From Caulobacteraceae bacterium (GTDB lineage: Bacteria > Pseudomonadota > Alphaproteobacteria > Caulobacterales > Aquidulcibacteraceae): DNA of 64,000 nt. A program made the translations under genes and the position numbers. Positions 47,972 to 63,742 of the stretch are shown one piece after another. The notes beneath the pieces were generated by a model. It had not been told where the DNA came from. It saw only the letters and a program-made list of their open reading frames with translations, and ran no database searches. Positions within the stretch are counted from its first letter, which is position 1; each line of letters opens with the position of its first letter. The DNA lies in the NCBI GenBank assembly GCA_031379735.1, contig JANNFK010000031.1:162-64161 (forward strand), given 5' to 3'.

Positions 47972-48083
47972 ACGACCGGCGCCCGATGGTTTGCTGCCGT
48001 TGCCGGACCTGGGCATCGCCGGCATAACTCTTGACGCGCGCGCGCAAGTGCGATCCGTTTGCCACGCCGAGGCCACCGAAGAC

Positions 48084-50102: not shown

Positions 50103-50173
50103 GGCTTTGGCGCAACAGCCAGCTGCATCGGACTGTAGTACCGCTAGTGTAGTCGCAAAAGCAGGGGCGCTTC

Positions 50174-52558
50174 ATGATCGCCAATACCTCGAAGTCCAAG
50201 GGCGCAAATATCCTCGCGTGGACGCCCCTTTTGATGATCACGACGATGCTCACAAGCATCGCCCCGGCCATGGCGCAGGACGCGAACGATGACACCATCA
50301 TCGTCACCGCGCAAAAGCGCGAAGAAGATCTTCAAGACGTGCCGATGAGCATTCAAGCGCTTGGCGAAGAGCGCCTGGAAGACCTGAATGTCTCCAGCTT
50401 CAACGATTTCGCTCAGTACCTACCGAGCCTCTCCTATCAATCCATCGGCCCCGGCTTTGCGCGCACTTTCATGCGCGGCGTAGCGAGTGGCGATAACGGC
50501 AACCATTCTGGTCCATTGCCCAGCGTAGGCATCTATCTCGACGAACAGCCAGTCACGACCATTACCGGCGCGCTCGATATTCACGTCTACGATATTGCGC
50601 GCGTGGAAGCGCTCGCCGGTCCGCAGGGCACGCTTTACGGCGCGAGTTCGCTCGCCGGCACTGTGCGTATCATCACCAATCAGCCGGACCCGGACGCATT
50701 CTCCGCTGGCTTTAGCCTCGAAGGCTCGTCGATCGATCATGGCGGCCTCAGCGGCGGCGCCGAAGGCTTCATCAACATTCCGCTCTCGAACCGCGCGGCC
50801 ATTCGCCTCGTCGCCTGGAATGAGCATGACGGCGGCTACATCGACAACGTCCAAGGCACGCGAACCTATCCGACCTGCGATGCGGGCCCGAACAACGGCT
50901 CGTGCACGATCGACAACGCGGCCATTGCTCAAGACGATTACAACCCTGTTGATACGTACGGCGCGCGCGCCGCGCTGCGCATCGAGCTCAACGATAGCTG
51001 GACGATCACGCCAACCATTATGGCGCAGGATCAGCGCAGCGAAGGCATCTTTGCGTTTGATCCAAACGTCGGCGACCTGGCGGTCACCCACTTCCTGCCC
51101 GAGAGCGCGCATGACGCATGGTATCAAGCGGCGCTGACCATTAACGGCACGATCGGGAATCTCGACCTCGTTTACGCCGGCGCCTTCATGAGCCGCGCCG
51201 TCGATTCCGAGTCCGACTATTCCGACTACTCTTTCTTCTACGACACGCTCGCCGGCTATTACATGTATGACGAGAGCGGCGTGCTCTACACCGATCCGTC
51301 GCAAGGCATTATCGGGCGCGATCGCTACACCAAGGAAAGCCACGAACTGCGTATTTCAACGCCAGGCGAAAACCGTTTGCGTTTCGTCGGCGGCCTCTTC
51401 TACCAGCGCCAAGTGCACGACATCGAACAGCGCTACACGATTGCCGGGATGTTCGATGACTTCGAGGTGCCGGGCTGGGACGACACGATCTGGCTGACGG
51501 CGCAACAACGCGTCGATCGCGACGAGGCGGCGTTCGGACAGCTCGCTTTCGATTTTACCGACCAGCTGACCGGCACAGTGGGCCTGCGCACGTTTCGCTC
51601 TCACAATACGCTAGTCGGTTTCTTCGGCTATGGCGCTGGGTTCAGCGGCTCAACCGGCGAGGCAGCGTGCTTCACCTTCGTCGAATATCATGGCGCGCCT
51701 TGCATCAATCTCGATCGCGGCATCGAGGAAACGGGCAACACACACAGCGTCAATCTCACATATCATTTCACGCCAGACATGATGGTCTATGGCACGTGGT
51801 CTAGCGGCTTCCGGCCCGGCGGCGTCAACCGGCGCATTTTCCAACAGGCGCTCTACAATTCCGACACGCTGACTAACTATGAGTTGGGCTTCAAATCGTC
51901 CTGGAACCAAAATCGCTTCCGCTTCAACGCGGCGGTCTTCCAAGAAGATTGGCAAGACTTCCAATTCTCCTTCCTCGGTCAAAATGGTCTGACTGAAAAT
52001 CGCAACGCCGGCGACGCGCGCATTCTGGGCGTCGAAGCCGATCTCACTTGGCGGCCAATCGATGGACTCACGATCTCGGCGGCGGGCGCCTACCTGCAGG
52101 GCGAAATTCTGCAAAACTATTGCTCGCTGATCTTGCCGGCCGGCACGCAAACGACTGACTGCCCCACCGCTGACAGCGATCTTCTGGCGCCGTCCGGAAC
52201 GTCGCTGCCGGTTACGCCGGACTTCAAAGGCGATCTGACCATTCGCCAAGAGTTCGAGATGATGCATCTCCCCTCCTATTGGCAGGCGGCGGTCGTTCAT
52301 CAATCGGGCGCCACGCAGGATCTGCGCACGTTCGAAAGCGCCATTATCGGATCGTTGCCCGCGTACACGTCGTTTGATCTGTCCGCCGGATTCGAGACTG
52401 AGTTCTTCAATCTCGATTTCTTCATCCGCAACGCCACCGACGAGCGCGGCGAGCTTTATCGCTATACGGAATGCCAAATCGCCGTGTGCGGTGCGCAATA
52501 TTATGTCGCGCCAATCCAGCCGCGCACGATCGGCGTTCGCTACAGTCAAGCCTTCTAG
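50174..52558 (+). CDS. TonB-dependent receptor
   Basis: 794 aa. It has a signal peptide, the plug start DDTIIVTAQKREEDLQDVPMSIQAL, and a C-terminal barrel ending ...RTIGVRYSQAF (terminal aromatic residue). Confidence 0.9.
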   Translation: MIANTSKSKGANILAWTPLLMITTMLTSIAPAMAQDANDDTIIVTAQKREEDLQDVPMSIQALGEERLEDLNVSSFNDFAQYLPSLSYQSIGPGFARTFMRGVASGDNGNHSGPLPSVGIYLDEQPVTTITGALDIHVYDIARVEALAGPQGTLYGASSLAGTVRIITNQPDPDAFSAGFSLEGSSIDHGGLSGGAEGFINIPLSNRAAIRLVAWNEHDGGYIDNVQGTRTYPTCDAGPNNGSCTIDNAAIAQDDYNPVDTYGARAALRIELNDSWTITPTIMAQDQRSEGIFAFDPNVGDLAVTHFLPESAHDAWYQAALTINGTIGNLDLVYAGAFMSRAVDSESDYSDYSFFYDTLAGYYMYDESGVLYTDPSQGIIGRDRYTKESHELRISTPGENRLRFVGGLFYQRQVHDIEQRYTIAGMFDDFEVPGWDDTIWLTAQQRVDRDEAAFGQLAFDFTDQLTGTVGLRTFRSHNTLVGFFGYGAGFSGSTGEAACFTFVEYHGAPCINLDRGIEETGNTHSVNLTYHFTPDMMVYGTWSSGFRPGGVNRRIFQQALYNSDTLTNYELGFKSSWNQNRFRFNAAVFQEDWQDFQFSFLGQNGLTENRNAGDARILGVEADLTWRPIDGLTISAAGAYLQGEILQNYCSLILPAGTQTTDCPTADSDLLAPSGTSLPVTPDFKGDLTIRQEFEMMHLPSYWQAAVVHQSGATQDLRTFESAIIGSLPAYTSFDLSAGFETEFFNLDFFIRNATDERGELYRYTECQIAVCGAQYYVAPIQPRTIGVRYSQAF

Positions 52559-52617: not shown

Positions 52618-53151
52618 TCACGTTTGCTGTGCCGCCAAGAACTTGACGGCGGGTTCGTCTGGCTCGGCCTTTTCGGGCAGCGCGTGATTTGCGAAGGGGC
52701 GTCTCTCGTCCGCGACAGCGAGTTCGCAGCGCTCGAAGACATCCTCCGCCATTTGTTGAGCGTTGGCGAGCATCGGATCGCACTGAGAACCGAACATCAG
52801 AGTCGGCATGCTGATGCGGGTCTGCTCTGGTCCTAGTGCTTCACGGATGTGTCGCTGCATCGTCGGGGAAGTGGCGCCGGCAAAGCTCATCACAAACCTG
52901 ATGGACTGAAACGCGTCGTGTCCCGCCTCCCGAGCAGCCGCGACCAGCAGCGCCATGCCCCCGTCGTTGGAATAGCCGGCAATGCCGTCGGGACGTTCGC
53001 GGCGGCAGACCTTCGCGAGCAAGTCCATGCTGGCTTCGAGGCCGACATAGCGTCCTAGCTGCAGGAATTCCCCTAAACTTCCTTCTTTCTCCGGCCGATG
53101 CGCAAAGATTTGGGCGTGCGCTCCTGCAAGCGGATGGGTCCTGAACGGCGG
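52618..53151 (-). pseudogene. C-terminal two-thirds of an alpha/beta serine hydrolase (FSH1-like), apparently lacking its N-terminal segment
   Basis: The nucleophile elbow GYSNDGGMA lies only about 20 residues after the first Met. The frame stays open upstream to a TAG at 53152-53154 without any start codon. A possible N-terminal piece (LDCFQPGASGG) appears only in another frame further upstream. Confidence 0.4.
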
Positions 53152-53342: not shown

Positions 53343-53999
53343 CTATTGCGTCCCGGCACGCCGCCGGTAGGTGAAATCCCACTCAACGTTCCAGGTCTGT
53401 GCGGCGTCGTCGAACACTTCACCCCATTGGCGCACCGTTCGGTCGTCAATCCGCTGGAAGTTCATGCGTCGGCGTCCAGGTGACTGGCCTTGTGCACTTG
53501 GACCTAGATTGTCGAGACGAAGCACGCCCTCGTTGTCGAGCACGCCAGAAAACTCCGTGCGCGATCCGTTAGCGTCCGCCCAAGTCTGATGCCATTTTTG
53601 GTCCGCCGGATCGTACACGTTTATCGAATGGCCATGGCCGCCGCCGAACGGGCGCCAGTGTTCGATGATGACGCAACCTTGATCTGTAAGCGTGATCGAG
53701 CTTTCAGCGACGGTGACACCGCTTGTTGATCCACTTGGCGAGACGTCCCATTCACCGAGCCAAAAATCGAACTGCCGACTCTCAGGGCTCACGCACCCTG
53801 CTGGCCGCTGCGGGCGCACTGCGCGGCCCTGAATAATGGCGCGCTGTTGTGTGACCTCGTCGCGAAGCTCCTGGCGGCTCATCGTGTTAGGCGCCGGTAG
53901 CGGCGCTTGCTGCGCCGTTTGGGCAGACGCAAGCGCGGGCGAGATCGACAGCATAAGCGCGGTGACTATGGCGAAACGCATTGTACCCCCTCGACGCAT
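53343..53999 (-). CDS. Exported hypothetical protein
   Basis: Signal peptide MRFAIVTALMLSISPALASAQ. The mature part (FDFWLGEWDV...IIEHWRPFGGGHGHSINVYD...QTWNVEWDFTYRR) is Trp-rich and beta-looking, and I recognise no family with confidence. It lies 6 nt downstream of the TIR gene. Confidence 0.6.
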   Translation of the reverse strand: MRRGGTMRFAIVTALMLSISPALASAQTAQQAPLPAPNTMSRQELRDEVTQQRAIIQGRAVRPQRPAGCVSPESRQFDFWLGEWDVSPSGSTSGVTVAESSITLTDQGCVIIEHWRPFGGGHGHSINVYDPADQKWHQTWADANGSRTEFSGVLDNEGVLRLDNLGPSAQGQSPGRRRMNFQRIDDRTVRQWGEVFDDAAQTWNVEWDFTYRRRAGTQ

Positions 54000-54005
54000 G
54001 AACCT

Positions 54006-54731
54006 TCATCCGTAGCCGCGCGGCCACACCGAGTTCAATTCGATTGCGAGGAACGGTGCTGAGAAGGCGATAGGCGCGCAAATTGCGCCGCCGGCGGCGC
54101 GGCAGAGGCGCTCCAAAGGCATGATCTTGCTCAGATCCAGGATGCCCGTATTGACGCTAGAACGAATGGCTGTTGCCAATCGCTCCAGGTCGTCGTGAAA
54201 ATCCGGATCGCGCCGAATGATCGCCGCGTTACGGCGCAGAAGCGGCTTCAAGCTATCGGGCACTTCCTCGCCACGCGGCATCTGTGCGCCGTTGACCAGC
54301 ACAGGCGCGACAAGAACGCCCGGCGTGGCTAGCGCAGTTTCAATCTCGATGCGAACCCAGTCGTGATCGTCGTCTAGACGGCGCTTGCCGGTTTCGTCCT
54401 TGGACTCGAGCCGATGCGGCCCGATCAGAGCAATCGCTACACGGCAGCGCGGCAGAACAGTTTTGATGTAATCACCGAAATCGACACCGGGGCCGATGTT
54501 ATCGACATCCTTAAAGACGCGCTGCTTGCCGAAGCGCTGCGACATCGCATCATAAATGCGCCCCGCCACATCGGCGGTGTCGTCCCGCCGATAGCTCTGC
54601 CCTCGCTTGCTCGCGCGAGCGATAGGTTTTGCGCGCTGTACGCTCGGTTTTGAGTGACGGGAAGAAGCTCTCCGTCGCCGCATTGTCCCAGCAATTGCCG
54701 GCTCGATTGCGGTCAGTGATCTAGCGCACAC
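54006..54731 (-). CDS. TIR domain protein (TIR_2 type), no other recognisable domain
   Basis: The core SYRRDDTADVAGRIYDAMSQRFGKQRVFKDVDNIGPGVDFGDYIKTVLPRCRVAIALIGPHRLESKDETGKRRLDDDHDWVRIEIETALATPGVLVAPVLVNGAQMP matches the bacterial TIR_2 pattern. The N-terminus is uncertain: it is arginine-rich, and the usual VFISY strand reads RGQSY. Confidence 0.7.
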   Translation of the reverse strand: MCARSLTAIEPAIAGTMRRRRASSRHSKPSVQRAKPIARASKRGQSYRRDDTADVAGRIYDAMSQRFGKQRVFKDVDNIGPGVDFGDYIKTVLPRCRVAIALIGPHRLESKDETGKRRLDDDHDWVRIEIETALATPGVLVAPVLVNGAQMPRGEEVPDSLKPLLRRNAAIIRRDPDFHDDLERLATAIRSSVNTGILDLSKIMPLERLCRAAGGAICAPIAFSAPFLAIELNSVWPRGYG

Positions 54732-54865
54732 CGCTGGGCTCGAAGTCGCCGACTGCGGTCACTGACGCGCTTCCATCAATCCTCGAACAGGGGGGTCTGC
54801 ACGCCTCGCAATGCGAGGTCGACGACGCAATCCCACACTGGCGTTCGCGAGTTCCGCATGCAATT

Positions 54866-54894
54866 CTCCCCCTGGAGTTGAAAGAGAGGGGGAG
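54866..54894 (+). promoter_or_regulatory. Hairpin whose 3' arm is the Shine-Dalgarno sequence of the muramidase-like gene
   Basis: CTCCCCCT (54866-54873) and AGGGGGAG (54887-54894) are perfect 8-nt complements separated by 13 nt. The ATG is at 54899, 4 nt after the 3' arm. Confidence 0.5.
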
Positions 54895-54898
54895 TGAT

Positions 54899-55705
54899 AT
54901 GCATCGCCGAACCGTGCTTATGGGCCTCGCCGCCGTTGGCGCGACCGCAGCAACGCGGGCGCGCGCGCAGGCAAACGATTTTGACGCGCTGCTCGCTCAA
55001 CTGAACGCTGATCCTTCACTGGTTGAAGGCGCCTGGGCGGCGTCCAACCATCAAAACGCCGCCGAGCGCAGCGTGGGCATAGGCGAACCGTCCACTCGCC
55101 GCATTTCCCAACGCGCGATCGACATGATCATCAAGCTCGAAGTCTCGAGTCAGGCTCAATACGAAAGCCGATACACGCACCCAATTTGGCCAGGCGGACA
55201 GTCAGGTGTCACCATTGGCATCGGCTACGACCTCGCCTTCGCAAATGCTGAATATATGCAGCGCGATTGGGGCGCACTCGTTCTGGCGGAAGCGATTACC
55301 CGCCTGAGCACGACATTCACACTACGAGGCGCGGCAGCGCAGCAAGCTGTCCCTGCTCTGCGCGATATTGTCATTCCCTGGGATGCCGCGTGCCAGCAAT
55401 TCGACGCGTTCCTACCCTATCCGACAGCGCAGGCTGAACGCATTTTTCCTAATAGCGACAAGCTGAGCGATGACAGCTTCGGCGCGCTTGTATCGCTGGT
55501 CTATAATCGCGGCGCATCGATTGCTGCGGGCAGCACGCGGCGCCGCGAAATGCGTGACATTCACTTCCTGATGGCCGAAGAGAACTTCGACCCTATTCCG
55601 CAGAAAATTCGCGATATGAAGCATCTCTGGGATCCTGTAACGCAACGCGGTTTGCACATTAGGCGCGATCTTGAGGCGAGCTTGTTCGAACTCGGCAGAA
55701 CCTAA
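54899..55705 (+). CDS. Tat-exported GH24-like (phage/T4-type lysozyme fold) protein
   Basis: Twin-arginine signal MHRRTVLMGLAAVGATAATRARAQA. The pattern IDMIIKLEVS...GVTIGIGYDL...FGALVSLVYNRG...RGLHIRRDLEASLF follows the GH24 lysozyme layout, with the catalytic Glu candidate in KLEVS. Confidence 0.6.
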   Translation: MHRRTVLMGLAAVGATAATRARAQANDFDALLAQLNADPSLVEGAWAASNHQNAAERSVGIGEPSTRRISQRAIDMIIKLEVSSQAQYESRYTHPIWPGGQSGVTIGIGYDLAFANAEYMQRDWGALVLAEAITRLSTTFTLRGAAAQQAVPALRDIVIPWDAACQQFDAFLPYPTAQAERIFPNSDKLSDDSFGALVSLVYNRGASIAAGSTRRREMRDIHFLMAEENFDPIPQKIRDMKHLWDPVTQRGLHIRRDLEASLFELGRT

Positions 55706-55767
55706 CGCGGCGCTGCCGAGTAGAGCACTGGGTTAGCGGGCCGCCTGGGAGAATTCGGGGAGCGATC

Positions 55768-58230
55768 ATGATTGTCAGCTCTTTGATGCGCAAGGCGCGC
55801 GTTTTGCTGTGCGCCGTTGGATTCGGATTGTTCGCGGCGACGAGCGCGGCTCAGGAGGGGCAGCAATCGTCCAACGAATTTCGCGAATACGCGATGGAGC
55901 AGCTACGCCGCGGTCGACTGCCCGGCGCAATTCGTCAATTAGAAGCACTCGTCGCGAACCCGCCTGCCCACGCCAACTCTCTCGATCGCGCGTCCTTTCC
56001 TGTGGATCTGATCGAGCTTTACGCGATCGAGGCGCAGTTTGAAGGCAGATTGTCGGGACCAGCGACAGATCGACGAGTCGATGAGCTTTATCGGCAGGCT
56101 CTGCATTTCAACCCGCCGGAACTCGCCTATCAGGTTGAGAGCACGTACGCTTACTATCTGAACGTTACCGATCAAACCGGCGCGGCGATGCAACATTTTC
56201 GGACCGCGCTGCGTGATCCGAATATGTCTCAAGACCCCGGCTCCGAATATGCCGCGCTCGGCCAAATCGCCGCGGCCTATATGGACATGGGCAATTTCGA
56301 CTATGCGGCGGCGGCGCTGGCGCGCGCCCGCGCGGTCGAGTCACGCCTGCCGGCGGCGATACGCACCGATGCCCATCTCACGTTGTCGCCGCTGGAAATG
56401 AGCCTACTGCTCAGTCAGGGCAACCCGGCGGCGCTGAGTGCGCTGGCCCGCGCAGATCAAATTCTCATCCGTTCGAACGCTGTCACTGCCGAGAAGAGGG
56501 TGCAGGCCAGCATCGCTCAGCTGATCTACCTAAACCAAATCCATGACGAGCAAGCGGCGCAGCAAGCGGAAACAATCGTACGTGAGAATGCAGCCCGAGG
56601 CTTGCCGAGCGAAATTCGCGATCAAGTTCCCGCGTCCATGCGCCGAGACCTTGCGAACGCTATCGTCGATTGCCTGACATTGGTGGTCGGCAATCCTGAA
56701 ACTCTCGCCGCCGACCCAAACTACTCATCGAGGCTGAGCACATGCGAACAAGTCGGCCTCAACATGCCCGCCATGCAAGGACAATTGCGCGCAACGCCGG
56801 CGCTTGTTCTGGAGCGCCAGGGAAGAGATGGCGAAGCGACACGCATTTACGAAGATATGATCAGTCATGCTGAGCGTTCGCGAGAGAGTTTCGACGTTGC
56901 GCAGCGCCAGGCATTTTTTGCGGGCCGCTGGCGTGTGCCCTATGACGGGTTGACGCGCATCGACACGCGCGCCTTCCTGAGACAGAACTACATTTCTTCT
57001 TTCATGCGGGCGTTGATCGACGTCGATCGCACGCGCGCTCGTCAGTTCGGTGAATTGCGCGGCGACCACGCAGACTTTGGTACGCCGGAATCGATTGGGG
57101 CATTTGTCCGTTCTCTGCCATTGGGGACAGCCGTCGTCGTGTTGTCCAGTCACGATAGTGAACAGATGGCGTTTGGCTTCACGCAGACGATGCGGCGCGC
57201 CGCCATCATCCCCATCACCGCCAGCTCGCTCAATGCGCGCGTCAACACGGTGCGCGGCCTGCTGGAGGATGCGGACGCCGACCTTCCGGCGATCGACGAA
57301 CATATGGACGCGCTCTCGCGCGACGCGCTGGGGTCGGTTCGCGATGTGTTGGCCGGAGCAACGGACATCATCGTTATCGTCGACGGGCCGTTGGCGCGCG
57401 TTCCGTTCAACCTGTTTACAGCCGCGGACAACGCGCCATTCATTGGAGACACGGCGAACGTTTCCTACCGGCTCTCGCTCCGCGCCTTACGCTCGGAACG
57501 CCGCACTGCAACGGGACGTGGTCTGTTTGCCGTTGGCGGAGCGCACTATCCCGATGCGCCTCCAGCCATCCCGCTTGATGACAATGTTGGTCTGGAGCGC
57601 ATCGATGCTTATCGCGGCGTCATAGACCTTCGCCCGCTGCCTTTCACACGCGCCGAGGCAATACGTCTTGGCGCCAGTTTCGATCCGAGCGCCGCCGCGC
57701 CGGCTTTGAATGATCAATCCTCTCGCGGGGTTTCGGGAGCGGGCATGCGCGTCTTGTTAGGAGACGCCGCAACAGAAGCAGCTGTGAGACGCAGCATAGT
57801 CGAAGCACGCTATGTGCATCTGGGTTCGCACGGCCTGTTGGCGGGCACGTACGGCCTGGTTGAGCCCGCCATCGTATTGAGCGCGGGCGACGGCGAGGAC
57901 GGCTTTTTGACGGTCAGTGAAATCGCGTCGCTACGTATGAGCGCCGAACTCACCGTGCTTTCAGCGTGTTCGAGCGGCGACGGGCGTGTCGTGGCAGGCG
58001 AAGGCGCGATCAGTCTAGCGCGCGCCTTCTTGATCGCGGGAAGCCGTGATGTGCTGGTGTCGATGTGGCAAATAAACGATGCGAAAACATCAGACTGGAT
58101 GGCGGACTTTTACGAGCGCTTGCACGCTGGAGCCCTACCCGCAGTCGCGCTGCGCGAAACAAACACATACATGCGCCAGACGGTGTCCGAGCCAAAGTTC
58201 TGGGCGCCGTTTATTCTCGTCTCAGGCTGA
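55768..58230 (+). CDS. Exported TPR-like / CHAT domain (caspase-fold) protease
   Basis: GGGGAG lies upstream of ATG 55768. Sec signal MRKARVLLCAVGFGLFAATSAAQ. The helical-repeat region is about 500 aa. The C-terminal CHAT domain has a His (YVHLGSHGLL) and Cys (LTVLSACSSGDG) dyad and the typical tail FWAPFILVSG. Confidence 0.75.
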   Translation: MIVSSLMRKARVLLCAVGFGLFAATSAAQEGQQSSNEFREYAMEQLRRGRLPGAIRQLEALVANPPAHANSLDRASFPVDLIELYAIEAQFEGRLSGPATDRRVDELYRQALHFNPPELAYQVESTYAYYLNVTDQTGAAMQHFRTALRDPNMSQDPGSEYAALGQIAAAYMDMGNFDYAAAALARARAVESRLPAAIRTDAHLTLSPLEMSLLLSQGNPAALSALARADQILIRSNAVTAEKRVQASIAQLIYLNQIHDEQAAQQAETIVRENAARGLPSEIRDQVPASMRRDLANAIVDCLTLVVGNPETLAADPNYSSRLSTCEQVGLNMPAMQGQLRATPALVLERQGRDGEATRIYEDMISHAERSRESFDVAQRQAFFAGRWRVPYDGLTRIDTRAFLRQNYISSFMRALIDVDRTRARQFGELRGDHADFGTPESIGAFVRSLPLGTAVVVLSSHDSEQMAFGFTQTMRRAAIIPITASSLNARVNTVRGLLEDADADLPAIDEHMDALSRDALGSVRDVLAGATDIIVIVDGPLARVPFNLFTAADNAPFIGDTANVSYRLSLRALRSERRTATGRGLFAVGGAHYPDAPPAIPLDDNVGLERIDAYRGVIDLRPLPFTRAEAIRLGASFDPSAAAPALNDQSSRGVSGAGMRVLLGDAATEAAVRRSIVEARYVHLGSHGLLAGTYGLVEPAIVLSAGDGEDGFLTVSEIASLRMSAELTVLSACSSGDGRVVAGEGAISLARAFLIAGSRDVLVSMWQINDAKTSDWMADFYERLHAGALPAVALRETNTYMRQTVSEPKFWAPFILVSG

Positions 58231-58914
58231 CGGCCAGGTGCAAGACGGTTGCAAGGCGCAACCGCTCCCGCTTTGCCCGTTAGCGCGCGAGCACGTCACA
58301 TCGCAACTAGCCGTCCGCATCAGCAGCTGATCGCTTCGACCGAGCCGCATGTCTGCTTCTCTGGGATATTCACGCGCGCCTCCGACAGCCCACCCGCGCC
58401 GCCGGCAGGTCGCATTCAATACAAGTAGGGGTGCGCGGCCAACGGTCTGCCGGCGCTCGCGGCATAACCGTCTGCGCGACGCAGGAGCGGTAAGGCGCCC
58501 GAAAAGATTGTGAGGACGATGCGATGTGATGGCGAACCGGTCAGATTCGGCATAATAATCCGAGCGGGTGTCGACGATGTAGACGACATCGCCAGCACTG
58601 AGACGTACGCCGCCAGCTTCTCGCGCACGCAAAACGATTCCGCGGATCGGCCGCATTCGATAATGATTGCCGACCCAACCGACCCATTCTCCGGCGGTCG
58701 TCGAGCCGATCACCGTCGCGTCTGGATGCGGCCGATCCCGAAGTTCGACGGCGGCATCGGCCCGCATATCGGGGCAGTCGCCGTCTGCACATGTGTTGTC
58801 CTCTGGTTCGTAGAAACCGTTCACGACGGGCGGCCCGCCGTCGGGCAAGAATTCCGGGGCTTGTTGCGCGCCGGTGCGGGGAGACCCTCCCTCCGATCGA
58901 TCAATTTCAATCAA
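58222..58914 (-). CDS. Hypothetical ORF; the N-terminal half is possibly SH3-like and the C-terminal half looks non-protein-like
   Basis: The segment ELRDRPHPDATVIGSTTAGEWVGWVGNHYRMRPIRGIVLRAREAGGVRLSAGDVVYIVD has a bacterial-SH3 flavour. The last 100 or so residues are Arg/Cys-rich, and the ORF overlaps the CHAT stop. The real extent is uncertain. Confidence 0.3.
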   Translation of the reverse strand: MIEIDRSEGGSPRTGAQQAPEFLPDGGPPVVNGFYEPEDNTCADGDCPDMRADAAVELRDRPHPDATVIGSTTAGEWVGWVGNHYRMRPIRGIVLRAREAGGVRLSAGDVVYIVDTRSDYYAESDRFAITSHRPHNLFGRLTAPASRRRLCRERRQTVGRAPLLVLNATCRRRGWAVGGAREYPREADMRLGRSDQLLMRTASCDVTCSRANGQSGSGCALQPSCTWPSA

Positions 58915-58983
58915 TGGCGTGGCCGACCCAAGTCGGTCAGTGGCTTAGCACGGCGCAACCGGTCGCCGACACCGGCCATTCGG

Positions 58984-60186
58984 CTACGCGTTTTTGAACC
59001 GCGCGGCTTCTTCCGAACCACCGGTGGCGTCGCCGGCGCTGTAGGAATGCGCGCCCGCGCCAGCTAGTTTACCCTCGGCGACGATTAGATACTCGTCACG
59101 GATTGGGCGACCGTCAAAATAGCATTCGAGGATTTCGCGCACGCCCGCCGCGTAGCGCGTCTGCGCCGACAGCGAAGTACCGGAGATATGCGGCGTCATG
59201 CCGTGATGCGGCATCGTACGCCAGGGATGATCCCTCGGCGCCGGCTGCGGGAACCATACGTCACCGGCGTAACCAGCAAGGTGTCCGCTTTTCAATGCCC
59301 GCACGATAGCGTCGCGATCGGCGATCTTGCCGCGCGCGGTATTGATCAGATAAGCACCGCGCTTCATCCGCGCGATAAGCTTATCGTCAAATAGATGCTC
59401 TGTTTCCGGATGCAGTGGACAATTGATGGTAACGACGTCGCAATGGGGAACCATGTCGGCGGCGCTGGAGTGGAAAGTGAGGCCGATTTCATCCTCCACG
59501 TTTTTCGGCAAGCGGTGACGATCCGTATAATGCAGCTTCACGTCGAACGGCTTCATCCGCCTCAGCACGGCGAGCCCGATGCGCCCCGCCGCTACAGTGC
59601 CGATTGACATGCCCTCGACATCATACGAACGCGCCGCGCAATCGGCGATGTCCCAACCGCCATCGAGCACAACTTGGTGCGACGGGATATAATTACGCAC
59701 CAGGCCGAGGATCATCATCACGACGTGCTCGGCGACGCTGATGGAATTGCAGAACGTCACCTCGGCCACCGTCAGCCCGCGATCCATCGCCGCCTGCAGA
59801 TCGACGTGATCGGATCCGATGCCGGCGGTGATCGCCATTTTTAGGTTTCTCGCCTTGGCGATCCGCTCCTTGGTCAGATAGGCTGGCCAGAAGGGCTGCG
59901 AGATCACGATGTCGGCGTCGGACAATTCGCTATCGAACTTAGAATCGGCGCCGTCCTTGTCGCTGGTGACAACGAACTTATGGCCACCGGCTTCCAGGAA
60001 TTTGCGTAAGCCCAATTCGCCGGACACAGAGCCCAACAGCGCACCCGGCTTGAAATCGATCGCCTTTGGCGTCGGCAGTGACTGCCCATCGGGATATTTA
60101 TCGAGTTTCGGCAGGTCGTCGCGCGCGTAGCTCTTAGGATAAACGCCAGCCGGATCATCATAGAGAACGCACACTATCTTGGCCAT
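58984..60186 (-). CDS. fdh: NAD-dependent formate dehydrogenase (D-2-hydroxyacid dehydrogenase family)
   Basis: 400 aa. The N-terminus is MAKIVCVLYDDPAGVYPKSYARDDLPKLDKYPDGQSLPTPKAIDFKPG. The patterns PFWPAYLTKERI, AGIGSDHVDL, VAAGRIG and the MTPHISGTSL context are classical for soluble FDH. A strong SD (AGGAGGAA) lies upstream. Confidence 0.9.
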   Translation of the reverse strand: MAKIVCVLYDDPAGVYPKSYARDDLPKLDKYPDGQSLPTPKAIDFKPGALLGSVSGELGLRKFLEAGGHKFVVTSDKDGADSKFDSELSDADIVISQPFWPAYLTKERIAKARNLKMAITAGIGSDHVDLQAAMDRGLTVAEVTFCNSISVAEHVVMMILGLVRNYIPSHQVVLDGGWDIADCAARSYDVEGMSIGTVAAGRIGLAVLRRMKPFDVKLHYTDRHRLPKNVEDEIGLTFHSSAADMVPHCDVVTINCPLHPETEHLFDDKLIARMKRGAYLINTARGKIADRDAIVRALKSGHLAGYAGDVWFPQPAPRDHPWRTMPHHGMTPHISGTSLSAQTRYAAGVREILECYFDGRPIRDEYLIVAEGKLAGAGAHSYSAGDATGGSEEAARFKNA

Positions 60187-60352
60187 CGACGGTTCCTCCT
60201 ATGGCCCGTCACCCTGCGCTCAGGAGCGGCCTGCGTCCATTCTCATAACAAGCGGCAGTGCCGGCAAGAACGGGGGCCGGCTGATAAGCCGATGGTCCCA
60301 AGCAGCGATCGACAACGTCGCTCTAAACCAGTCATTCAACTGTTATGCGCCG

Positions 60353-60374
60353 GCACGGCGGAAGGTCGCCGTGC
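60353..60374. terminator. Perfect 8-bp hairpin between the TIR-WD40 stop and the fdh start
   Basis: GCACGGCG (60353-60360), loop GAAGGT, CGCCGTGC (60367-60374). There is no U-run, so a role as terminator or processing site is only positional inference. Confidence 0.3.
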
Positions 60375-60424
60375 GCAGGCATATCTCAGCGCGCATGACC
60401 GCTGCATTTGCGCGCGGCGAAGCT

Positions 60425-63400
60425 TTACGAGCGTGCACCGGCGAACGCTTCCCTGAAAGCAGCCGCGAGCTCATCGACCAATGTGGGCCTACGGCACACA
60501 TCCACGCCCTCACTCGCGCGCAAAGCAGGCGCGCTCTCGACATCGCGCCTCTGCACTTGGCGCAGATTGACGCTCTGCTCCGTCAGCACGCCTTCTTGGT
60601 TTCTCTGGCCCAACGTATGACGTGCGAGATTCTGAGAGCACACCGTTTCGATGAGCGCTTCACCATGCAGGTTGGCGGCGATCCCAATATTCCAAAGCCG
60701 CACCGCCCCATGTTCGCCGCCGGCGGCGAGCCACTGGCCGTCGCGCGACAGCGCAAGTCTCGCCGAGCCGACATTGTGGCGGAGCGCAGCGCCGACTTGC
60801 GTACCGCTTCGCGTATCCCAGATGTGGATATTGCCCTCGGCGGATCCAGTCGATGCATTGCTGGCGAGGAGCACCCTCGATCCGTCGATCGAAAACATAA
60901 AATCGGTCGTCAAGAGATCGCCGCCGTTGAAGTTTGCAATGGCTGTCGTGGCGCCGAGGTTCCACACCGCGCCCATGCTGCCCAGACTCGCCGCACCAAT
61001 GTGCGCGCCATCGGGTGAGAACACGATATGGTCTGCGCGAGCGAGAATTCTTCGTCCGTCCCGCATGTCCGAGAGAATTCGGTCCGTTCGAAAATGATCG
61101 TCGGCGGAGCGCACGATCGGCGCATAGTTGGATTCTTCAGTACCTGATCGATCCGCACGGGCAAAAGCCGCAAAGCGACCGTCCGGTGAGAAGATTGCGT
61201 GGGGCAGATGTGCAATCCCTTCCTCACCTGTTTCCGTGCTGAGCCGCAGCACGGCGCCTTCGTTGCTAAAGGTCACCCAGGCGCCGTCGGCGGAGAACGC
61301 AATTTCGTAATAGCCGCCCTCTCCGGCGGGACGCTCAAACAGCACGCGGCGACCGGCGATGTCGATGAGGCGATAGCTGCCGCCCTGCACGAGAGCGAGT
61401 TTGCGTCCATCGGGTGACACGGCGATCTCTTCGGCGCCTCCGCCCAGCACCGCGATGCGCGAGAGCGTGCTTGAAGCCGACCAGATCGTGACATTCTGCG
61501 CATTCGCCGTGGCGACCACATCGCCGCGCCGCGAAGCGGAGATGCGCGTCGCATCGATGGGCGCCGCCACCAGCGCGCCGGTCTCGGCGCTGCGCAAATA
61601 AGCGTGCGGCGGCGAGGACGACAATAAAAGGCCGTCGCCAACGAAAGCCAGCGCATACACAAAATCGTCGCCGCTTTGCGCCTCGAGCCGCAGAGCGTCC
61701 ACACCCGGATTTCGTGCCGCGATGACCTGGAGCTCTCCGCTCGCAAGCGCCGCGGCGAGTTGGGCGCCGTCTGGTGAAAAGGCGAGCGCGTTCGCGCCGC
61801 TGATCGTGTGGATGGGCGGCCCGATCTGATCGCCGCGCGCGACGTCCCACAAGCGAACGACGCCTTCCGATCTCAGGATGTCCCGCTCCGTCACCGCCAG
61901 CACATGCCCGTCTGGACTGAAGGCCATCCCAAACCCCATGCCGCCGGAGCGATAGTCGTCATGCTGCAGTGTTGGACTGCGCTGGCGTCCGTCTAAACCC
62001 CAAATCACCACGTCATGTTCATAGTTCGCGAGCGCGATCGCGTCGCCGGCGGGCGCGACCGCCATCGTCTGAATCTGCTGCTCGATGTTCGCGATACGGG
62101 AACGGGCGGCGCCGCTGTGTGCGCTCCAAAGTCTCACCTCCCCTTCGACGGCGCCGACGATGGTCTCACCGTCGCTGCCGAAAGCAGGATCGCGGGCGTT
62201 CAACTCAGCGATCAGCGCGCCGCTCGTCACATCATGAAGTGCGCTGGCGCCGCCGGGGAATTCTTGCGTGATCAGCAGGCGGGCGCTGTCACGCGAGAAA
62301 GCGATTCGTTCGCCGCCGCGCGTTTCGACTTGACGTACGAGCGACCAGTCCGCCGTGCTCCACAGGCGCAAGATCCGGTTGCTCAAGGTCGCCAGCCGCG
62401 CCCCGTCGGGGGAAAACGCCACGGCCTGCACCGGATTTTGATGCGCCAGGTCGGCGCTAATCTGCTGCAGCGTTTGGGCGTCCCATAGGCGCACGACACG
62501 GTCTTCGCCGCCCGTGGCGATGACCCCGCCATCAGGCGCATAGGCGACCGCATAGGCGCCGGCGCCGTGCGCAGCGATCTCGCCCACGCGCCTTTCATCC
62601 TTGGCCACCGAGGCCAGCGCGATCTCGGCCTCGGGCGCCGCGCGCGCGATAAAACCGGAACGCGCCGCCACCAACGCAAGGCGCAACGCGCGCAGGTGAA
62701 AACCAGAGGCTAGCGCTTGGCGCGCCCCGACGGCGAGCTCCTGCGACCTTTGGTAAGAGGCGCGTCGCGATTGATCGATGACGAAGACGGAGAGCGACAC
62801 GCCAATCAAAGCCAACGCCGCGAACAGTCCTCCGGCGAGGCTTGCGACCCGCGCACGCTGGCGCCGCTTCTCACGCCCCCACAATTCGTCGAATGGCGCG
62901 CCAAGCAAACCCGCTGCTAGACGTACGCGCGCTTTGTCGCTCGCGTGACCCTGCAAGGGAATGGCCAAGGGCTCCGCGCGCCGGTCCGTCAGATTTCCTT
63001 CGGCGTCGGTCTCATAGCGCAAGCCCGGCGGAAAACATTCCTCGGCGCGTTCCGCTTCGCTAGCGGCATCCGATGCATGAGGCGAACCATCGACGATCAC
63101 GGCAAACACGCGTTCGGCGCGGCCCGTGCGCTTGAAATGCAGGATCTCGGACTGCACCCATTTCGACCGCGCCGACGCCGGCGAACACACGACGATCAGG
63201 CTCTCGGCGTCCTCGATGGCGCCCCTTAAGGCTGCGCCCAGATCGGTGGCCGCGCCCATTTCGTCATCGTCGCGAAAGAAACGCCCCAGCCGCCGCGTCT
63301 TCGCATCGACGCGTTCGGCTGCGACGCCCTTCGGCACGCGATAGGCTTCAAGCCACTTGTGCAGCCGCTGCGCGAACGGCTTGTCGACCTGCGAGTAGCT

Positions 63401-63445
63401 GATGAAGCCGCGATAGCGCTTCGCTTGACCCATAGGCGCCCCCAC
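60425..63445 (-). CDS. TIR domain / single transmembrane helix / about 14-15 WD40-type beta-propeller blades
   Basis: The N-terminal TIR_2 pattern is YRGFISYSQVD...ESLIVVCSPASARSKWVQSEILHF...VFAVIVDG. A basic stretch REKRRQRAR is followed by the hydrophobic helix VASLAGGLFAALALIGVSLSVFVI (about 62777-62848). Repeated blade signatures follow (FSPDGARLATLS..LRLWS, FSPDGHVLAV..VRLWDV, FSPDGAQLAAA, VSPDGRKLALV, FSADGAWVTFS, FSPDGRFAAFA, FSPDGAHIGAAS, LSRDGQWLAAGGEHGAVRLWNI and others). The start is GTG 63445 or ATG 63433. Confidence 0.8.
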   Translation of the reverse strand: MGAPMGQAKRYRGFISYSQVDKPFAQRLHKWLEAYRVPKGVAAERVDAKTRRLGRFFRDDDEMGAATDLGAALRGAIEDAESLIVVCSPASARSKWVQSEILHFKRTGRAERVFAVIVDGSPHASDAASEAERAEECFPPGLRYETDAEGNLTDRRAEPLAIPLQGHASDKARVRLAAGLLGAPFDELWGREKRRQRARVASLAGGLFAALALIGVSLSVFVIDQSRRASYQRSQELAVGARQALASGFHLRALRLALVAARSGFIARAAPEAEIALASVAKDERRVGEIAAHGAGAYAVAYAPDGGVIATGGEDRVVRLWDAQTLQQISADLAHQNPVQAVAFSPDGARLATLSNRILRLWSTADWSLVRQVETRGGERIAFSRDSARLLITQEFPGGASALHDVTSGALIAELNARDPAFGSDGETIVGAVEGEVRLWSAHSGAARSRIANIEQQIQTMAVAPAGDAIALANYEHDVVIWGLDGRQRSPTLQHDDYRSGGMGFGMAFSPDGHVLAVTERDILRSEGVVRLWDVARGDQIGPPIHTISGANALAFSPDGAQLAAALASGELQVIAARNPGVDALRLEAQSGDDFVYALAFVGDGLLLSSSPPHAYLRSAETGALVAAPIDATRISASRRGDVVATANAQNVTIWSASSTLSRIAVLGGGAEEIAVSPDGRKLALVQGGSYRLIDIAGRRVLFERPAGEGGYYEIAFSADGAWVTFSNEGAVLRLSTETGEEGIAHLPHAIFSPDGRFAAFARADRSGTEESNYAPIVRSADDHFRTDRILSDMRDGRRILARADHIVFSPDGAHIGAASLGSMGAVWNLGATTAIANFNGGDLLTTDFMFSIDGSRVLLASNASTGSAEGNIHIWDTRSGTQVGAALRHNVGSARLALSRDGQWLAAGGEHGAVRLWNIGIAANLHGEALIETVCSQNLARHTLGQRNQEGVLTEQSVNLRQVQRRDVESAPALRASEGVDVCRRPTLVDELAAAFREAFAGARS

Positions 63446-63742
63446 AATTCAGCATATAGCACTTGTAAGCGTGCGGTAGCGGAAAACGATTTCGTCTGGA
63501 AATCCGAAGGCAAGGCCGGACTAATTATTTGATGTTCTTCGCAACTGCGGACCGTCGCTTTTGGGCCAGACCTGCGGCCTCCGACATTTCCTGCGAATGG
63601 CCGGCGCGCTCGGATCCTGCCGATGGCGCACTGCCCGCCAGAGCGGGACGCGATCGCCGTTGGCGGCCGTTGCGGTGTGCAACAATCGCGGCGACGAGAA
63701 TGTCCCCAAACGGATGCTTGCTCTGTAACTATGACTCTATGT

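Follow-up and report, generated by a model that had tools for sequence, protein, structure and literature searches.

The window analyzed here, a 64,000-nt stretch of DNA from a Caulobacteraceae bacterium, carries TIR, CHAT-caspase, WD40, and TPR modules within about 10 kb (53343–63445), and the original prediction grouped them as one envelope-surveillance or envelope-attack module while cautioning that the grouping might be coincidental. This raises the question of which of these genes, if any, belong together. The predicted genes and domains were all found, with several corrections needed, and STAND NTPase, SIR2, SLOG, and nuclease genes were absent within 47–64 kb, as had been read. The 10 kb was not borne out as one module; its true core is a muramidase–CHAT operon. 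In gene-neighborhood searches, a muramidase, a CHAT protease, and a TIR protein recurred together in other genomes and, on this comparative evidence, the grouping of the muramidase, the CHAT protease, and the small TIR protein exceeds chance; no such link emerged for the TIR-TM-WD40 gene.

The muramidase–CHAT operon

The functional unit is well supported as a two-gene operon (54899–58230) that encodes a Tat-exported muramidase and a Sec-exported CHAT protease. The two genes, which had been predicted to be divergently transcribed, are co-directional on the plus strand with a 62-nt gap and probably form one operon; the divergence holds between the two together and the TIR relic described below. 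The upstream gene, LYS (54899–55705), encodes a pesticin/GH24-type muramidase of 268 aa, as assigned from its structure model, an invariant triad, and ortholog context. Its Pfam Phage_lysozyme match was sub-threshold (20.6 bits, cut-off 22.3), and a Foldseek comparison of the AlphaFold2 model (pLDDT 93.4) with the PDB placed pesticin (4epf/4aqn) on top. Residues 1–23 form a twin-arginine signal (MHRRTVLMGLAAVGATAATRARA, followed by Q), the RR motif of which was kept across the LYS family, and the start at 54899 was favored because homologue alignments begin at MHRR; thus, the fold and the export route read from the sequence originally were both upheld. The signal is followed by a conserved N-terminal extension of ~45 residues (about residues 24–66) and by a core with the catalytic residues Glu81 (55139), Thr105 (55211), and Asp111 (55229), the spacing of which matches E178/T201/D207 of pesticin. 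In the AlphaFold2 model, the extension helices and the core are linked by a lower-confidence coil (residues 53–70), which bears a conserved RG.G.G..S.R.IS motif in the family alignment. The triad was intact in 78 of 82 LYS sequences, and the enzyme of the window looks intact as judged from its sequence. Pesticin activity needs each of the three residues, T201A being inactive, and the pesticin activity domain lyses Escherichia coli when sent to the periplasm (PMC3390615); because of this lysis, an exported active homologue of the pesticin type must be restrained. LYS shares its fold with the activity domain of Yersinia pestis pesticin and with GH24/T4-type phage endolysins, and is predicted to act, like pesticin, on peptidoglycan from the periplasmic side. 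Unlike pesticin, it has neither receptor-binding/translocation domains nor a Pim-type immunity gene, and its gene adjoins that of a caspase-fold protease; the twin-arginine signal and the conserved extension set it apart from both pesticin and the phage homologues.

The downstream gene (55768–58230) encodes an exported CHAT protease (caspase-fold, clan CD) of 820 aa, identified by Pfam (CHAT, E=6e-45) and by structure match. It consists of a Sec signal (about residues 1–28), a TPR-like helical-repeat region (residues 35–430), and the CHAT domain (about residues 450–820). For the predicted Sec-exported TPR-CHAT protease, the CHAT domain and the Sec-type signal were recovered directly, and the TPR part, sub-threshold by sequence, appeared as helical hairpin repeats in the AlphaFold2 model. 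The catalytic dyad (His688, 57829; Cys734, 57967) is kept, Cys734 being invariant and His684/His688 nearly so across the CHAT alignment, and this enzyme also looks intact. Its top Foldseek match was the periplasmic TPR-CHAT domain of DdvA (E=2.6e-15), with Csx29 and separase next in rank.

Recurrence of the muramidase–protease pairing

The operon is, with good comparative support, one version of a modular pairing in which an extended muramidase and a caspase-fold protease (CHAT or Peptidase_C14) share a compartment. A search of 5.8 billion proteins yielded a single ortholog of the CHAT protein (L001, 51% identity), with a LYS ortholog (60%) directly upstream in the same LYS–CHAT order. The LYS locus set (L001–L081) combined this locus with the 80 best-scoring genome loci out of 172 confirmed matches; phylogenetically, these are clumped, with about 17 from Burkholderiaceae. 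Genes in the fetched loci were called by a home-made ORF picker, and the calls of signal peptides and TM helices relied on hydropathy, motifs, and conservation. Within 10 kb of the LYS homologue, 23 of these 80 loci had a CHAT or CHAT-like gene and 17 had a C14 gene, mostly immediately downstream and in the same direction; beside the closest LYS homologues (59% identity), the C14 protease gene starts 19 nt on. The pairing recurs across Proteobacteria, spanning Alpha-, Beta-, and Gammaproteobacteria, and is apparently undescribed so far.

A protease gene (CHAT or Peptidase_C14) lay ≤300 nt away in 38/52 extension-bearing stand-alone LYS genes, with the other 14/52 lacking one, versus 1/14 core-only forms (Fisher p=1e-5), and CHAT, C14, or TIR genes were nearby in 0/58 viral loci with core-only homologues. 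By these counts, protease linkage is specific to the N-terminal extension of LYS. LYS proteins with an RR signal go with proteases bearing a strong signal peptide, and the signal-less LYS proteins of Burkholderiaceae go with signal-less CHAT proteins; the predicted signals are present or absent in both together, which indicates that LYS and its protease share a compartment. At least five protease lineages occur beside LYS, some C14 partners bearing a GH19 lysozyme-like domain, and the partners have been swapped repeatedly. The flanks of the pair differ at every locus, and searches with LYS and CHAT returned no counterparts of ~89% identity, unlike those with the TIR-TM-WD40 gene. Together with an IS scar nearby, these features point to an accessory character of the pair.

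TIR partners and the TIR-TM-WD40 gene

The small TIR ORF (54006–54731, minus strand) had been predicted to encode a stand-alone TIR protein co-directional with an exported protein. The TIR domain is present (Pfam TIR_2 over residues 46–154, E=3e-8), with its candidate catalytic Glu kept (DWVRIE), and the exported protein is on the same strand; however, the gene is truncated and not intact. Homology to TIR-TM proteins starts at ORF residue 46 (homologue residue 7), and codons 1–45 correspond to a fragment of an IS3 transposase in a shifted frame: the frame-3 peptide of 54592–54720 matched IS3 family transposase in 3584 plasmid records (tblastn, up to 74% identity). Thus, on sequence grounds, the gene is a 5′-truncated TIR-TM relic (54006–54596) that comprises a TIR domain without the first beta-strand, a TM-like segment (54042–54098), and an 11-residue tail; its native 5′ end was replaced by an IS3-family transposase scar (54592–54720, minus strand; 43 codons from the interior of the transposase, in a different frame). 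The relic is 40–45% identical to TIR-TM proteins beside LYS–CHAT in 13 Burkholderiaceae loci (14 ORFs), which are 331–526 aa long and carry a periplasmic C-terminal domain that it lacks. TIR genes were observed in 22/81 LYS loci (L001–L081), and membrane-anchored TIR proteins are well supported as a frequent third partner, of which the window keeps only the IS-truncated relic. With the TIR partner disrupted, no more than the two-gene core can be functional in the window.

In three loci (L030, L049, and L055), TIR, TM, and LYS are fused, and these fusions are exactly the LYS sequences in which Val takes the place of the catalytic Thr; in L072, TIR, TM, WD40, and LYS form a single polypeptide. 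In the TIR-TM-muramidase fusions, the Thr-to-Val LYS domain is probably a peptidoglycan-sensing ectodomain. By analogy only, such proteins resemble animal Toll-like and PGRP receptors, in which an extracytoplasmic repeat or peptidoglycan-hydrolase-derived ectodomain is joined by a single TM helix to a cytoplasmic TIR domain, and the lack of one catalytic residue in the TIR-fused muramidase domains recalls receptor PGRPs. Unlike in Toll-like receptors, the TIR domain is N-terminal here, and the likeness implies no common descent of the architecture. The topology proposed originally, with cytoplasmic TIR domains and periplasmic protease, muramidase, and propeller, gained backing from the conserved signal peptides and from L049, L055, and L072, in which TIR and the muramidase and/or WD40 domain flank a single TM helix.

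The TIR-TM-WD40 protein (60425–63445, minus strand, 1006 aa) was recovered by Pfam and family alignment with the predicted domains and one TM-like helix: a TIR domain (residues 14–120, TIR_2 E=1e-10) with invariant Glu100, a single hydrophobic helix (residues 203–223; 62777–62839) at the same place in homologues, and many WD40 matches forming propellers (about residues 275–950). The TIR-juxtamembrane-TM chassis is conserved in the family alignment. An ortholog of 89% identity (87% at the nucleotide level) was found in L082, where homology is confined to 60360–63479, the flanks are unrelated, and LYS and CHAT are absent within 9–10 kb. LYS, CHAT, and C14 were likewise found in 0/80 related TIR-TM-WD40 metagenome loci (747 kb). 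The gene is thus well supported as an autonomous, single-gene, receptor-like unit that is mobile on its own and is predicted to combine a cytoplasmic TIR domain with a periplasmic propeller. These observations also bear on the proposal that the whole 10 kb is one system, in which the WD40 receptor acts as the sensor, TIR passes the signal on, and CHAT and the muramidase are the executors. A distant TIR-TM-WD40 family member 1.4 kb from the LYS gene in L012, the L072 fusion, and a weak match of the TIR-TM-LYS fusions to the TIR-juxtamembrane-TM profile speak for it. However, the close copy in wholly different flanks and the 80 loci free of LYS and proteases argue against it, as do the opposite strand of the gene and an unrelated formate dehydrogenase (FDH) gene plus 750 bp without a convincing gene that separate it from the operon, and we consider a single system unlikely.

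The FDH gene and the two remaining ORFs are unrelated to the operon or are not genes, and take no part in any conserved arrangement. The 218-aa exported protein (53343–53999, minus strand) has a Sec-type signal (MRFAIVTALMLSISPALASA, followed by Q) and an upstream Shine–Dalgarno sequence (GAGGGGG); its sole family match, DUF1579, was sub-threshold (E=0.022), and homologues were absent from all 81 related loci. The “SH3-like” ORF (58222–58914), doubted from the start, was not supported as a gene, with no family match and a codon-position GC (0.67/0.59/0.64) unlike that of the window's real genes. The suspected lower GC of the 54.8–58.2 kb segment is present, but the dip is small (operon 0.604, window 0.625); GC3 is 0.63–0.67 in the operon versus 0.71–0.73 in the FDH and TIR-TM-WD40 genes.

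A possible mechanism and its alternatives

The muramidase–CHAT operon looks like an envelope-level cell-death or defense module. We proposed that the muramidase would arrive in the periplasm latent, restrained by its own N-terminal extension, and that the CHAT protease would rest by default, as in DdvA, Craspase, and separase, until its repeat region senses a periplasmic cue. We infer that the activated protease may cleave the flexible, conserved Arg-rich loop at the junction of extension and core (LYS residues 53–66); the freed muramidase would then cleave peptidoglycan and lyse the producer cell, an altruistic answer to phage, predator, or envelope attack. Where intact TIR-TM partners are present, they might add cytoplasmic NAD+ cleavage or signaling. 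The protease could equally act in the other direction, breaking the muramidase down instead of activating it. Organization and mechanism taken as a whole, we regard this as the best explanation, with a probability of roughly 0.5.

In its logic, such a module would parallel, in the periplasm, the activation of gasdermins by caspase-like proteases. As in bacterial gasdermin operons and type III-E Craspase, a caspase-fold protease, often bearing a repeat sensor, lies beside a putative latent substrate that kills cells or signals, the protease lineages are swapped modularly, and Csx29 of Craspase (TPR-CHAT) is among the top structural matches. Unlike in these systems, gasdermin, CRISPR, and gRAMP genes are lacking, the putative substrate is a muramidase, and the two proteins of this subfamily are exported, so that any activation would be periplasmic. 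DdvA is an anti-sigma factor in control of an antiphage island; its TPR-CHAT region lies in the periplasm, is proposed to sense phage there (PMC11506125), and is a precedent for envelope surveillance. The CHAT protein of the window shares with it the helical-repeat and CHAT organization, the predicted periplasmic location, and the His-Cys dyad at about 16% sequence identity; in contrast to DdvA, it is soluble, with a cleavable signal and neither TM anchor nor zinc anti-sigma domain, and its conserved partner is a muramidase rather than a sigma factor, no ECF sigma gene being adjacent.

The muramidase might instead remodel the cell's own peptidoglycan, with the repeat-bearing periplasmic protease limiting its level by degradation. 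TPR lipoprotein–protease pairs such as NlpI-Prc and LbcA-CtpA degrade other cell-wall hydrolases, and bona fide cell-wall amidases use Tat export; the predicted periplasmic location and co-transcription of LYS and CHAT, the helical repeats on the protease, and the GH19 domain on some C14 partners, which suggests peptidoglycan binding, are consistent with such housekeeping control. We nevertheless find it improbable, since the distribution is patchy with ever-changing flanks, a single CHAT ortholog turned up in 5.8 billion proteins, TIR linkage and TIR fusions would be unexpected, a signal-less cytoplasmic version exists in Burkholderiaceae, the protease is caspase-fold and not S41 tail-specific, and an IS scar lies near.

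Similarly doubtful is a secreted antibacterial weapon, in which a pro-muramidase and its protease, exported by Tat and Sec and released through a T2SS or vesicles, would be activated outside and then lyse rival cells or prey. Pesticin domains are known to serve as toxins, both as bacteriocins and in T6SSs (PMC3390615, PMC9620997, PMC9927483), the hosts of LYS homologues include antagonistic soil genera (Lysobacter, Janthinobacterium, Massilia, Burkholderia, and Pseudomonas chlororaphis), and extracellular activation would spare the need for a conserved immunity gene. However, the pair has no conserved neighbor that encodes a receptor-binding/translocation domain, a secretion system, or an immunity protein, the TIR-TM-LYS fusions tether the domain to the producer's own membrane, the Burkholderiaceae version has no signal peptide, and a secreted enzyme would give the TIR partners no sense. 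A lysis cassette that stayed behind in the chromosome from a prophage or another phage source is very improbable, for although relatives of the catalytic core (34–47% identical) occur in 58 viral contigs, the genomes also carry short core-only copies, and the IS scar is near, genes for phage structural proteins, holins, and integrases are absent from the 47–64 kb region, as are tRNAs, and the viral homologues lack signal peptide and extension and never accompany a protease.

For the preferred reading, a module of muramidase and CHAT protease, neither a PADLOC model nor a publication on the combination was found, in keeping with the original view that the combination is uncharacterized. Surveys by Kaur, Burroughs, Iyer, and Aravind mention no pesticin-type muramidase partner, and their sole “lysozyme” is an EAD1-fused effector of a different system (PMC7159879, PMC8195603). 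The TIR_2/ThsB-like domains with their conserved candidate catalytic Glu resemble those of Thoeris and other TIR antiphage systems; unlike Thoeris, the window lacks a ThsA partner (SIR2, SLOG, or Macro). It also differs from STAND-based conflict systems by the absence of a STAND NTPase, and shares with the STAND-TIR/CHAT/WD40 conflict systems of the same surveys the vocabulary of TIR, CHAT, caspase, WD40, and TPR domains, to which L057 adds an FGE-sulfatase.

A conserved muramidase-protease gene pair

The genes and domains of the original prediction for 53343-63445 were recovered in place by ORF listing and Pfam. In particular, the muramidase gene LYS (54899-55705, + strand, 268 aa) and the gene of the exported CHAT protease (55768-58230, + strand, 820 aa), which had been taken for a divergent pair, were co-directional and separated by a gap of 62 nt. 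Pfam recognized LYS below threshold: the Phage_lysozyme model (PF00959) reached 20.6 bits against a cut-off of 22.3 and covered residues 195-237 only, neither this model nor the Pesticin model exceeded its gathering score, and a few LYS homologues carried precomputed PF00959 or PF16754 matches. The AlphaFold2 model of LYS, for which 29 homologues served as input, had a pLDDT of 93.4, and pesticin chains took the first 11 places in a Foldseek search with this model (E 2e-5 to 7e-4), with GH24 endolysins and T4 lysozyme behind them; as modeled, LYS is predicted to be structurally similar to pesticin and to have the T4-lysozyme-like fold of GH24/pesticin-like muramidases. Glu81, Thr105, and Asp111 were invariant in the LYS family alignment, and the Glu/Thr/Asp triad was kept in 78 of the 82 LYS sequences. 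By their spacing (24/6 in LYS, 23/6 in pesticin), these residues correspond to Glu178, Thr201, and Asp207 in pesticin, whose activity requires each of the three (PMC3390615). When directed to the E. coli periplasm by a signal peptide, the pesticin activity domain causes cell lysis (PMC3390615). The N-terminus of LYS reads as a typical twin-arginine signal, with an RR motif, a weakly hydrophobic Ala/Gly/Thr-rich core, and a basic c-region. Ahead of the catalytic core, AlphaFold2 and the alignment placed a conserved extension of about 45 residues, which form two helices and a subsequent lower-confidence coil with the pattern RG.G.G..S.R.IS. This extension was missing from the phage relatives of LYS, the homologues in 58 of 58 viral loci being core-only.

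The protease matched PF12770 (CHAT) with E=6e-45, and His688 was nearly invariant and Cys734 invariant among its homologues, which gives it the CHAT domain with a His-Cys dyad of a clan CD, caspase-fold protease. Tetratricopeptide models matched its N-terminus below their cut-offs (best TPR_14, E=0.0013; PilW-type, 1.9e-5), and AlphaFold2 predicted about 24 helices in hairpin repeats at residues 35-430, before the CHAT domain, with pLDDT mostly 70-90. In Foldseek, the modeled protein matched the periplasmic TPR-CHAT part of DdvA best (E=2.6e-15) and Craspase Csx29 and separase next, suggesting a DdvA-like structure. DdvA is a Myxococcus anti-sigma factor over a CBASS/CRISPR island, and its periplasmic CHAT domain has been proposed to sense a phage-associated signal (PMC11506125). 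However, the cytoplasmic zinc anti-sigma domain, the TM helix, and the ECF sigma gene that characterize DdvA are absent here: in the CHAT protein, the signal peptide is followed at once by the repeat region, and neither the ORF listing nor Pfam revealed a sigma factor gene in 47-64 kb.

The sole ortholog of the CHAT protein among 5.8 billion proteins (51% identity) lies on contig L001, where a LYS ortholog (60%) is directly upstream, as in the window. The LYS alignment was searched against one genome per GTDB species, yielding 80 loci with 10-kb flanks (the best 80 of 172 matches), which are phylogenetically clumped, with about 17 from Burkholderiaceae. Purpose-built HMMs, whose calls were borne out by Pfam on representative loci, were run on these loci, and counts were made over them and L001 together. 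A CHAT or CHAT-like gene lay within 10 kb of the LYS homologue in 23 of the 81 loci and an exported Peptidase_C14 (C14) gene, encoding a caspase-domain protease, in 17; a TIR gene was present in 22. The protease genes were mostly co-directional with LYS and immediately 3' of it. This pairing depended on the extension: a protease gene was found within 300 nt in 38 of the 52 loci with a stand-alone, extension-bearing LYS and in 1 of the 14 with a core-only LYS (Fisher p=1e-5 in this clumped set of loci), and in 0 of the 58 viral loci. In addition, signal peptides co-varied, in that LYS proteins with an RR signal were paired with signal-bearing proteases, and in Burkholderiaceae signal-less LYS proteins lay beside signal-less CHAT-TPR-S proteins. 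Because the signals co-vary, at least five protease lineages occur beside LYS, and the flanks are different in every locus, the pair has the marks of a mobile, modular unit of two genes, the products of which have to come together in one compartment. We defined the family by an extended LYS, a protease gene no more than 300 nt away, and signal peptides that both proteins have or both lack, a definition that the window pair fits with its extension, its 62-nt gap, and both predicted signals (RR-type on LYS, Sec-type on CHAT). Co-occurrence of the GH24-like gene with a CHAT or C14 protease gene holds in other genomes (L001; 38/52 extended LYS), and we concluded that the two-gene operon in the window is a genuine module.

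In the two closest LYS homologues (59% identity, one from Vitreimonas), a C14 protease with a GH19 domain was encoded 19 nt downstream. GH19 domains (chitinase/lysozyme-like; E=2.5e-6, above the Pfam cut-off) were located in C14 partners of loci L222 (5901-7361), L223 (1292-2752), and L221 (8827-10314). Because this domain is on the same protein, the C14 partner may itself bind or cut peptidoglycan.

TIR proteins around the operon and beyond

The ORF at 54006-54731 (- strand; Pfam TIR_2, E=3e-8), originally read as a stand-alone TIR protein, is not an intact gene. Its homology starts at residue 46, which aligned in BLAST comparisons with residue 7 of the TIR proteins of related loci, and its first 45 codons come from an internal IS3-family transposase fragment that the ORF reads in the wrong frame. 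In the transposase frame, 54592-54720 (- strand, 43 codons) encodes ITDRNRAGNCWDNAATESFFPSLKTERTARKTYRSREQARAEL, and this peptide matched IS3 transposases in 3584 plasmid records. Thus, the odd N-terminus results from the joining of this fragment to the start of the TIR gene in a different frame, and the fragment is the scar of an earlier insertion and deletion. The relic retains a TM-like segment and a candidate catalytic Glu (DWVRIE; DFVRLE in homologues), and it lacks the first beta-strand and the approximately 130-residue periplasmic domain of the 331-526-aa homologues. We also considered that the relic and a 218-aa ORF, which are in the same frame with a single stop between them, form one split gene, and rejected this reading: the 218-aa ORF is preceded by a separate Shine-Dalgarno sequence and begins with a full Sec signal peptide, shows no similarity to the domains at the C-terminus of TIR-TM homologues, and had 0 homologues in the 81 loci. 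Its best family match, to DUF1579, was below threshold.

A TIR-TM protein 40-45% identical to the relic was encoded just upstream of LYS-CHAT in 13 Burkholderiaceae loci (14 ORFs), and the small TIR is a decayed partner of the LYS-CHAT operon. Two further conserved genes, c17 and c7, accompany the Burkholderiaceae arrangement, with equivalents in about 10-14 Burkholderiaceae loci and neither in the window; Pfam, NCBIfam, and PADLOC gave no match to either. In locus L035, c17 (about 241 aa, with a GHMID motif) is at 9016-9741 (+) and c7 (about 290 aa) at 13768-14643 (-). At the place of the relic, L001 carries a multi-TM protein with a GHSHGG alpha/beta-hydrolase motif (2960-4703, - strand), split into ORFs of 69 and 520 aa, and "c25" proteins beside other LYS genes (e.g., L019, 10670-13999) have a GHSxG region at the N-terminus and are CHAT-like at the C-terminus; TIR and lipase-like effectors may be swapped at LYS loci.

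TIR and muramidase domains were joined in one polypeptide in loci L030, L049, and L055, with a TM helix between them in L049 and L055 and none detected in L030, and L072 encodes TIR, TM, WD40, and muramidase in one protein. The catalytic Thr was replaced in four LYS sequences, by Val in the three fusions of L030, L049, and L055 and by Ala in L026; pesticin T201A is inactive (PMC3390615). Judged from sequence, these fusions lend independent backing to the predicted topology, with TIR inside and muramidase and propeller outside, and suggest that the muramidase fold may have been recruited as a sensor ectodomain. In L057, a signal-less LYS homologue lies between a TIR-nSTAND1-FGE-sulfatase gene (6123-9008) and a TIR-WD40 gene (15328-18861), which, for at least this genome, links the muramidase domain with the classical STAND-type conflict systems.

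The large TIR-TM-WD40 gene (60425-63445, - strand) encodes an N-terminal TIR_2 domain (E=1e-10) followed by WD40 propellers (Pfam), and it belongs to a large family with varied C-terminal ectodomains and a highly conserved chassis, in which a KRYRAFISYSQ.D TIR domain is joined by a juxtamembrane region to a single TM helix (residues 190-220, approximately). Glu100 was invariant in the family alignment; the candidate catalytic Glu of TIR NADases, after the W-x-x-x-E motif, is present in both TIR domains of the region (SKWVQSE100 in the large protein, DWVRIE in the relic). An ortholog (89%) was found on the 18-kb contig L082, where window positions 60360-63479 matched 5453-8569 with 87% DNA identity; on each side, the homology extended no more than about 65 bp beyond the gene. 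Because it stops at the gene edges and both flanks are unrelated, the sequence comparison indicates a gene that probably moves as a single-gene cassette. When metagenome contigs were in turn searched with the chassis alignment, 80 loci (747 kb) were retrieved, and 0 of them carried a gene for a muramidase or for a CHAT or C14 protease. This result, together with the unrelated L082 flanks, led us to conclude that TIR-TM-WD40 behaves as an autonomous unit and an independent neighbor of the operon. The only hints of a link, both from the muramidase side, are a muramidase gene in L012 with a distant member of the family 1.4 kb away and a weak match of L049 to the TIR-TM chassis, and we regard co-operation of TIR-TM-WD40 with the LYS-CHAT operon in this genome as improbable. 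The prediction of one module spanning the region was therefore replaced by a two-gene core, with TIR-TM-WD40 separate and the remaining genes as bystanders.

Directly 3' of the TIR-TM gene, 12 metagenome loci (L108, L113, L117, L121, L124, L129, L132-L134, L136, L149, and L154) carried a gene for an exported protein of about 270-390 aa with a HEAGH (HExxH) metalloprotease-like motif, convergent to the TIR-TM gene in 11 of the 12 and co-directional and overlapping in L154. This protein may be a partner of the TIR-TM receptor family; as a conserved partner of the TIR-TM-WD40 family it was rejected, being missing from both the window and L082.

A proposed envelope module and its alternatives

To our knowledge, the known bacterial caspase-like proteases work in the cytoplasm, where their targets are gasdermins, Csx30, or effector proteins, and the known TIR systems sense and act intracellularly. 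The periplasm is the first point struck by phage DNA injection, predatory bacteria, T6SS effectors, and cell-wall antibiotics. A compartment-matched exported protease beside a potentially self-lethal muramidase points to regulated periplasmic cell-wall self-destruction or surveillance, and so do TIR proteins whose ectodomains on the other side of the membrane are WD40 or muramidase-derived. We proposed that the exported muramidase would be latent and that the protease, turned on by a periplasmic cue via its repeat region, would target the LYS extension or its Arg-rich linker, with a cut expected after an Arg within RSVGIGEPSTRR; the result would be lysis of the producer cell. By analogy, the logic would be that of gasdermin activation by caspase-like proteases, here moved to the periplasm and with a domesticated endolysin as the executioner. 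Two other readings are equally compatible with the data: the protease might degrade the muramidase instead of activating it, for homeostasis, or both proteins might be deployed extracellularly against competitors. Nevertheless, both are made less likely by the linkage to TIR genes, by the fusions anchored in the membrane, by the subfamily that has no signal peptides, and by a distribution that is patchy, IS-scarred, and independent of context. A prophage lysis cassette was dismissed, as the window has no tRNA gene and the viral homologues, all 58 core-only, had no protease.

Taken together, we tentatively put at about one in four the probability of an unrecognized envelope immune or cell-death module in many Proteobacteria, in which a periplasmic caspase-family protease would cleave the pro-region of a domesticated phage/pesticin-type muramidase, causing suicidal lysis upon envelope breach, and single-pass TIR receptors with WD40 or catalytically dead muramidase ectodomains would be Toll/PGRP counterparts that link periplasmic sensing to cytoplasmic NAD+ cleavage. 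If true, a protease-gated autolysin would be a new executioner in bacterial immunity, DdvA-type periplasmic CHAT sensing would gain a wider context, and a testable bacterial analogue of animal innate-immunity receptor architectures would be available. Because an intact version of five genes, TIR-TM, c17, LYS, CHAT-TPR-S, and c7, exists in culturable Paraburkholderia and a two-gene version in Caulobacter, Massilia, and Lysobacter, the module is open to experiment.

PADLOC and the HMM searches recognized no known defense system in the region. For the ORFs of 47-64 kb, PADLOC gave weak generic TIR matches only and none for LYS or CHAT, and it gave no match for the extra Burkholderiaceae genes; the matches to ThsB-type TIR (PADLOC ThsB, E=3e-5; NCBIfam ThcB4, 23.6 bits against a cut-off of 220) were weak and at the domain level. 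As predicted, no STAND NTPase, SIR2, SLOG, or nuclease was found by Pfam among all ORFs of 47-64 kb. Thoeris includes a ThsA effector (SIR2, SLOG, Macro, or TM), whereas Pfam and PADLOC found none in 47-64 kb. In gasdermin-protease systems a gasdermin lies beside the protease, whereas here LYS takes that place and no gasdermin was matched (Pfam, PADLOC). STAND conflict systems have a STAND, MoxR-vWA, or GTPase core (Kaur et al. 2020), whereas Pfam found none in the window, and type III-E Craspase comprises gRAMP/Cas7-11 and a CRISPR array, whereas in 47-64 kb Pfam matched no cas gene and none of these features was seen. The LYS-protease pairing was absent from surveys of TIR/caspase/WD40 conflict systems (PMC7159879, PMC8195603, PMC10907252) and from PADLOC v2, in agreement with the original view that the combination is uncharacterized, and pesticin or lysozyme with CHAT, caspase, or TIR was not described in the literature available in full text outside subscription. 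Thus, the module of extended muramidase and caspase-fold protease, with or without TIR-TM, appears to be undescribed; its parts and its logic are known, and the periplasmic setting and the receptor-like TIR fusions would be the surprising part.

Remaining genes of the region

Genes other than LYS, CHAT, the small TIR, and TIR-TM-WD40 are bystanders, including a formate dehydrogenase (FDH) gene of the D-2-hydroxyacid-dehydrogenase type (58984-60186, - strand; ORF listing and Pfam). A 136-aa ORF at 52618-53028 (- strand; E=1e-6) aligns with no more than positions 93-188 of the FSH1 serine-hydrolase profile, which is 211 positions long, and looks like another truncated gene; the partial FSH1 ORF and the IS scar together suggest that 52.6-54.8 kb is a decayed, rearranged stretch. 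The doubtful SH3-like ORF (58222-58914) gained no backing, as Pfam, NCBIfam, and PADLOC gave no match and its GC by codon position was atypical; the 753-bp spacer had no match in a plasmid DNA search, and we treated the ORF as noncoding or decayed. A promoter/terminator scan of 53.2-60.5 kb gave no more sites than shuffled sequence. An Rfam scan of 52-64 kb gave a single match, below threshold, to the c-di-GMP-I-GGC riboswitch model at 63616-63672 (+) (24.4 bits, gathering score 59, E=0.036), which lies upstream of TIR-TM-WD40, on the strand opposite to that gene, and is probably due to chance. Upstream of the operon, genes for a TPR-sulfotransferase (756 aa) and then a TonB-dependent receptor (794 aa) occupy 47832-52558 (+) in the part of the window with the lowest GC (0.575-0.60), with no tie to the operon seen. 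The predicted GC dip at 54.9-58.2 kb was real and proved small (0.604, against 0.625 for the window), and GC3 was 0.63-0.67 in the LYS-CHAT operon compared with 0.71-0.73 in the FDH and TIR-TM-WD40 genes.
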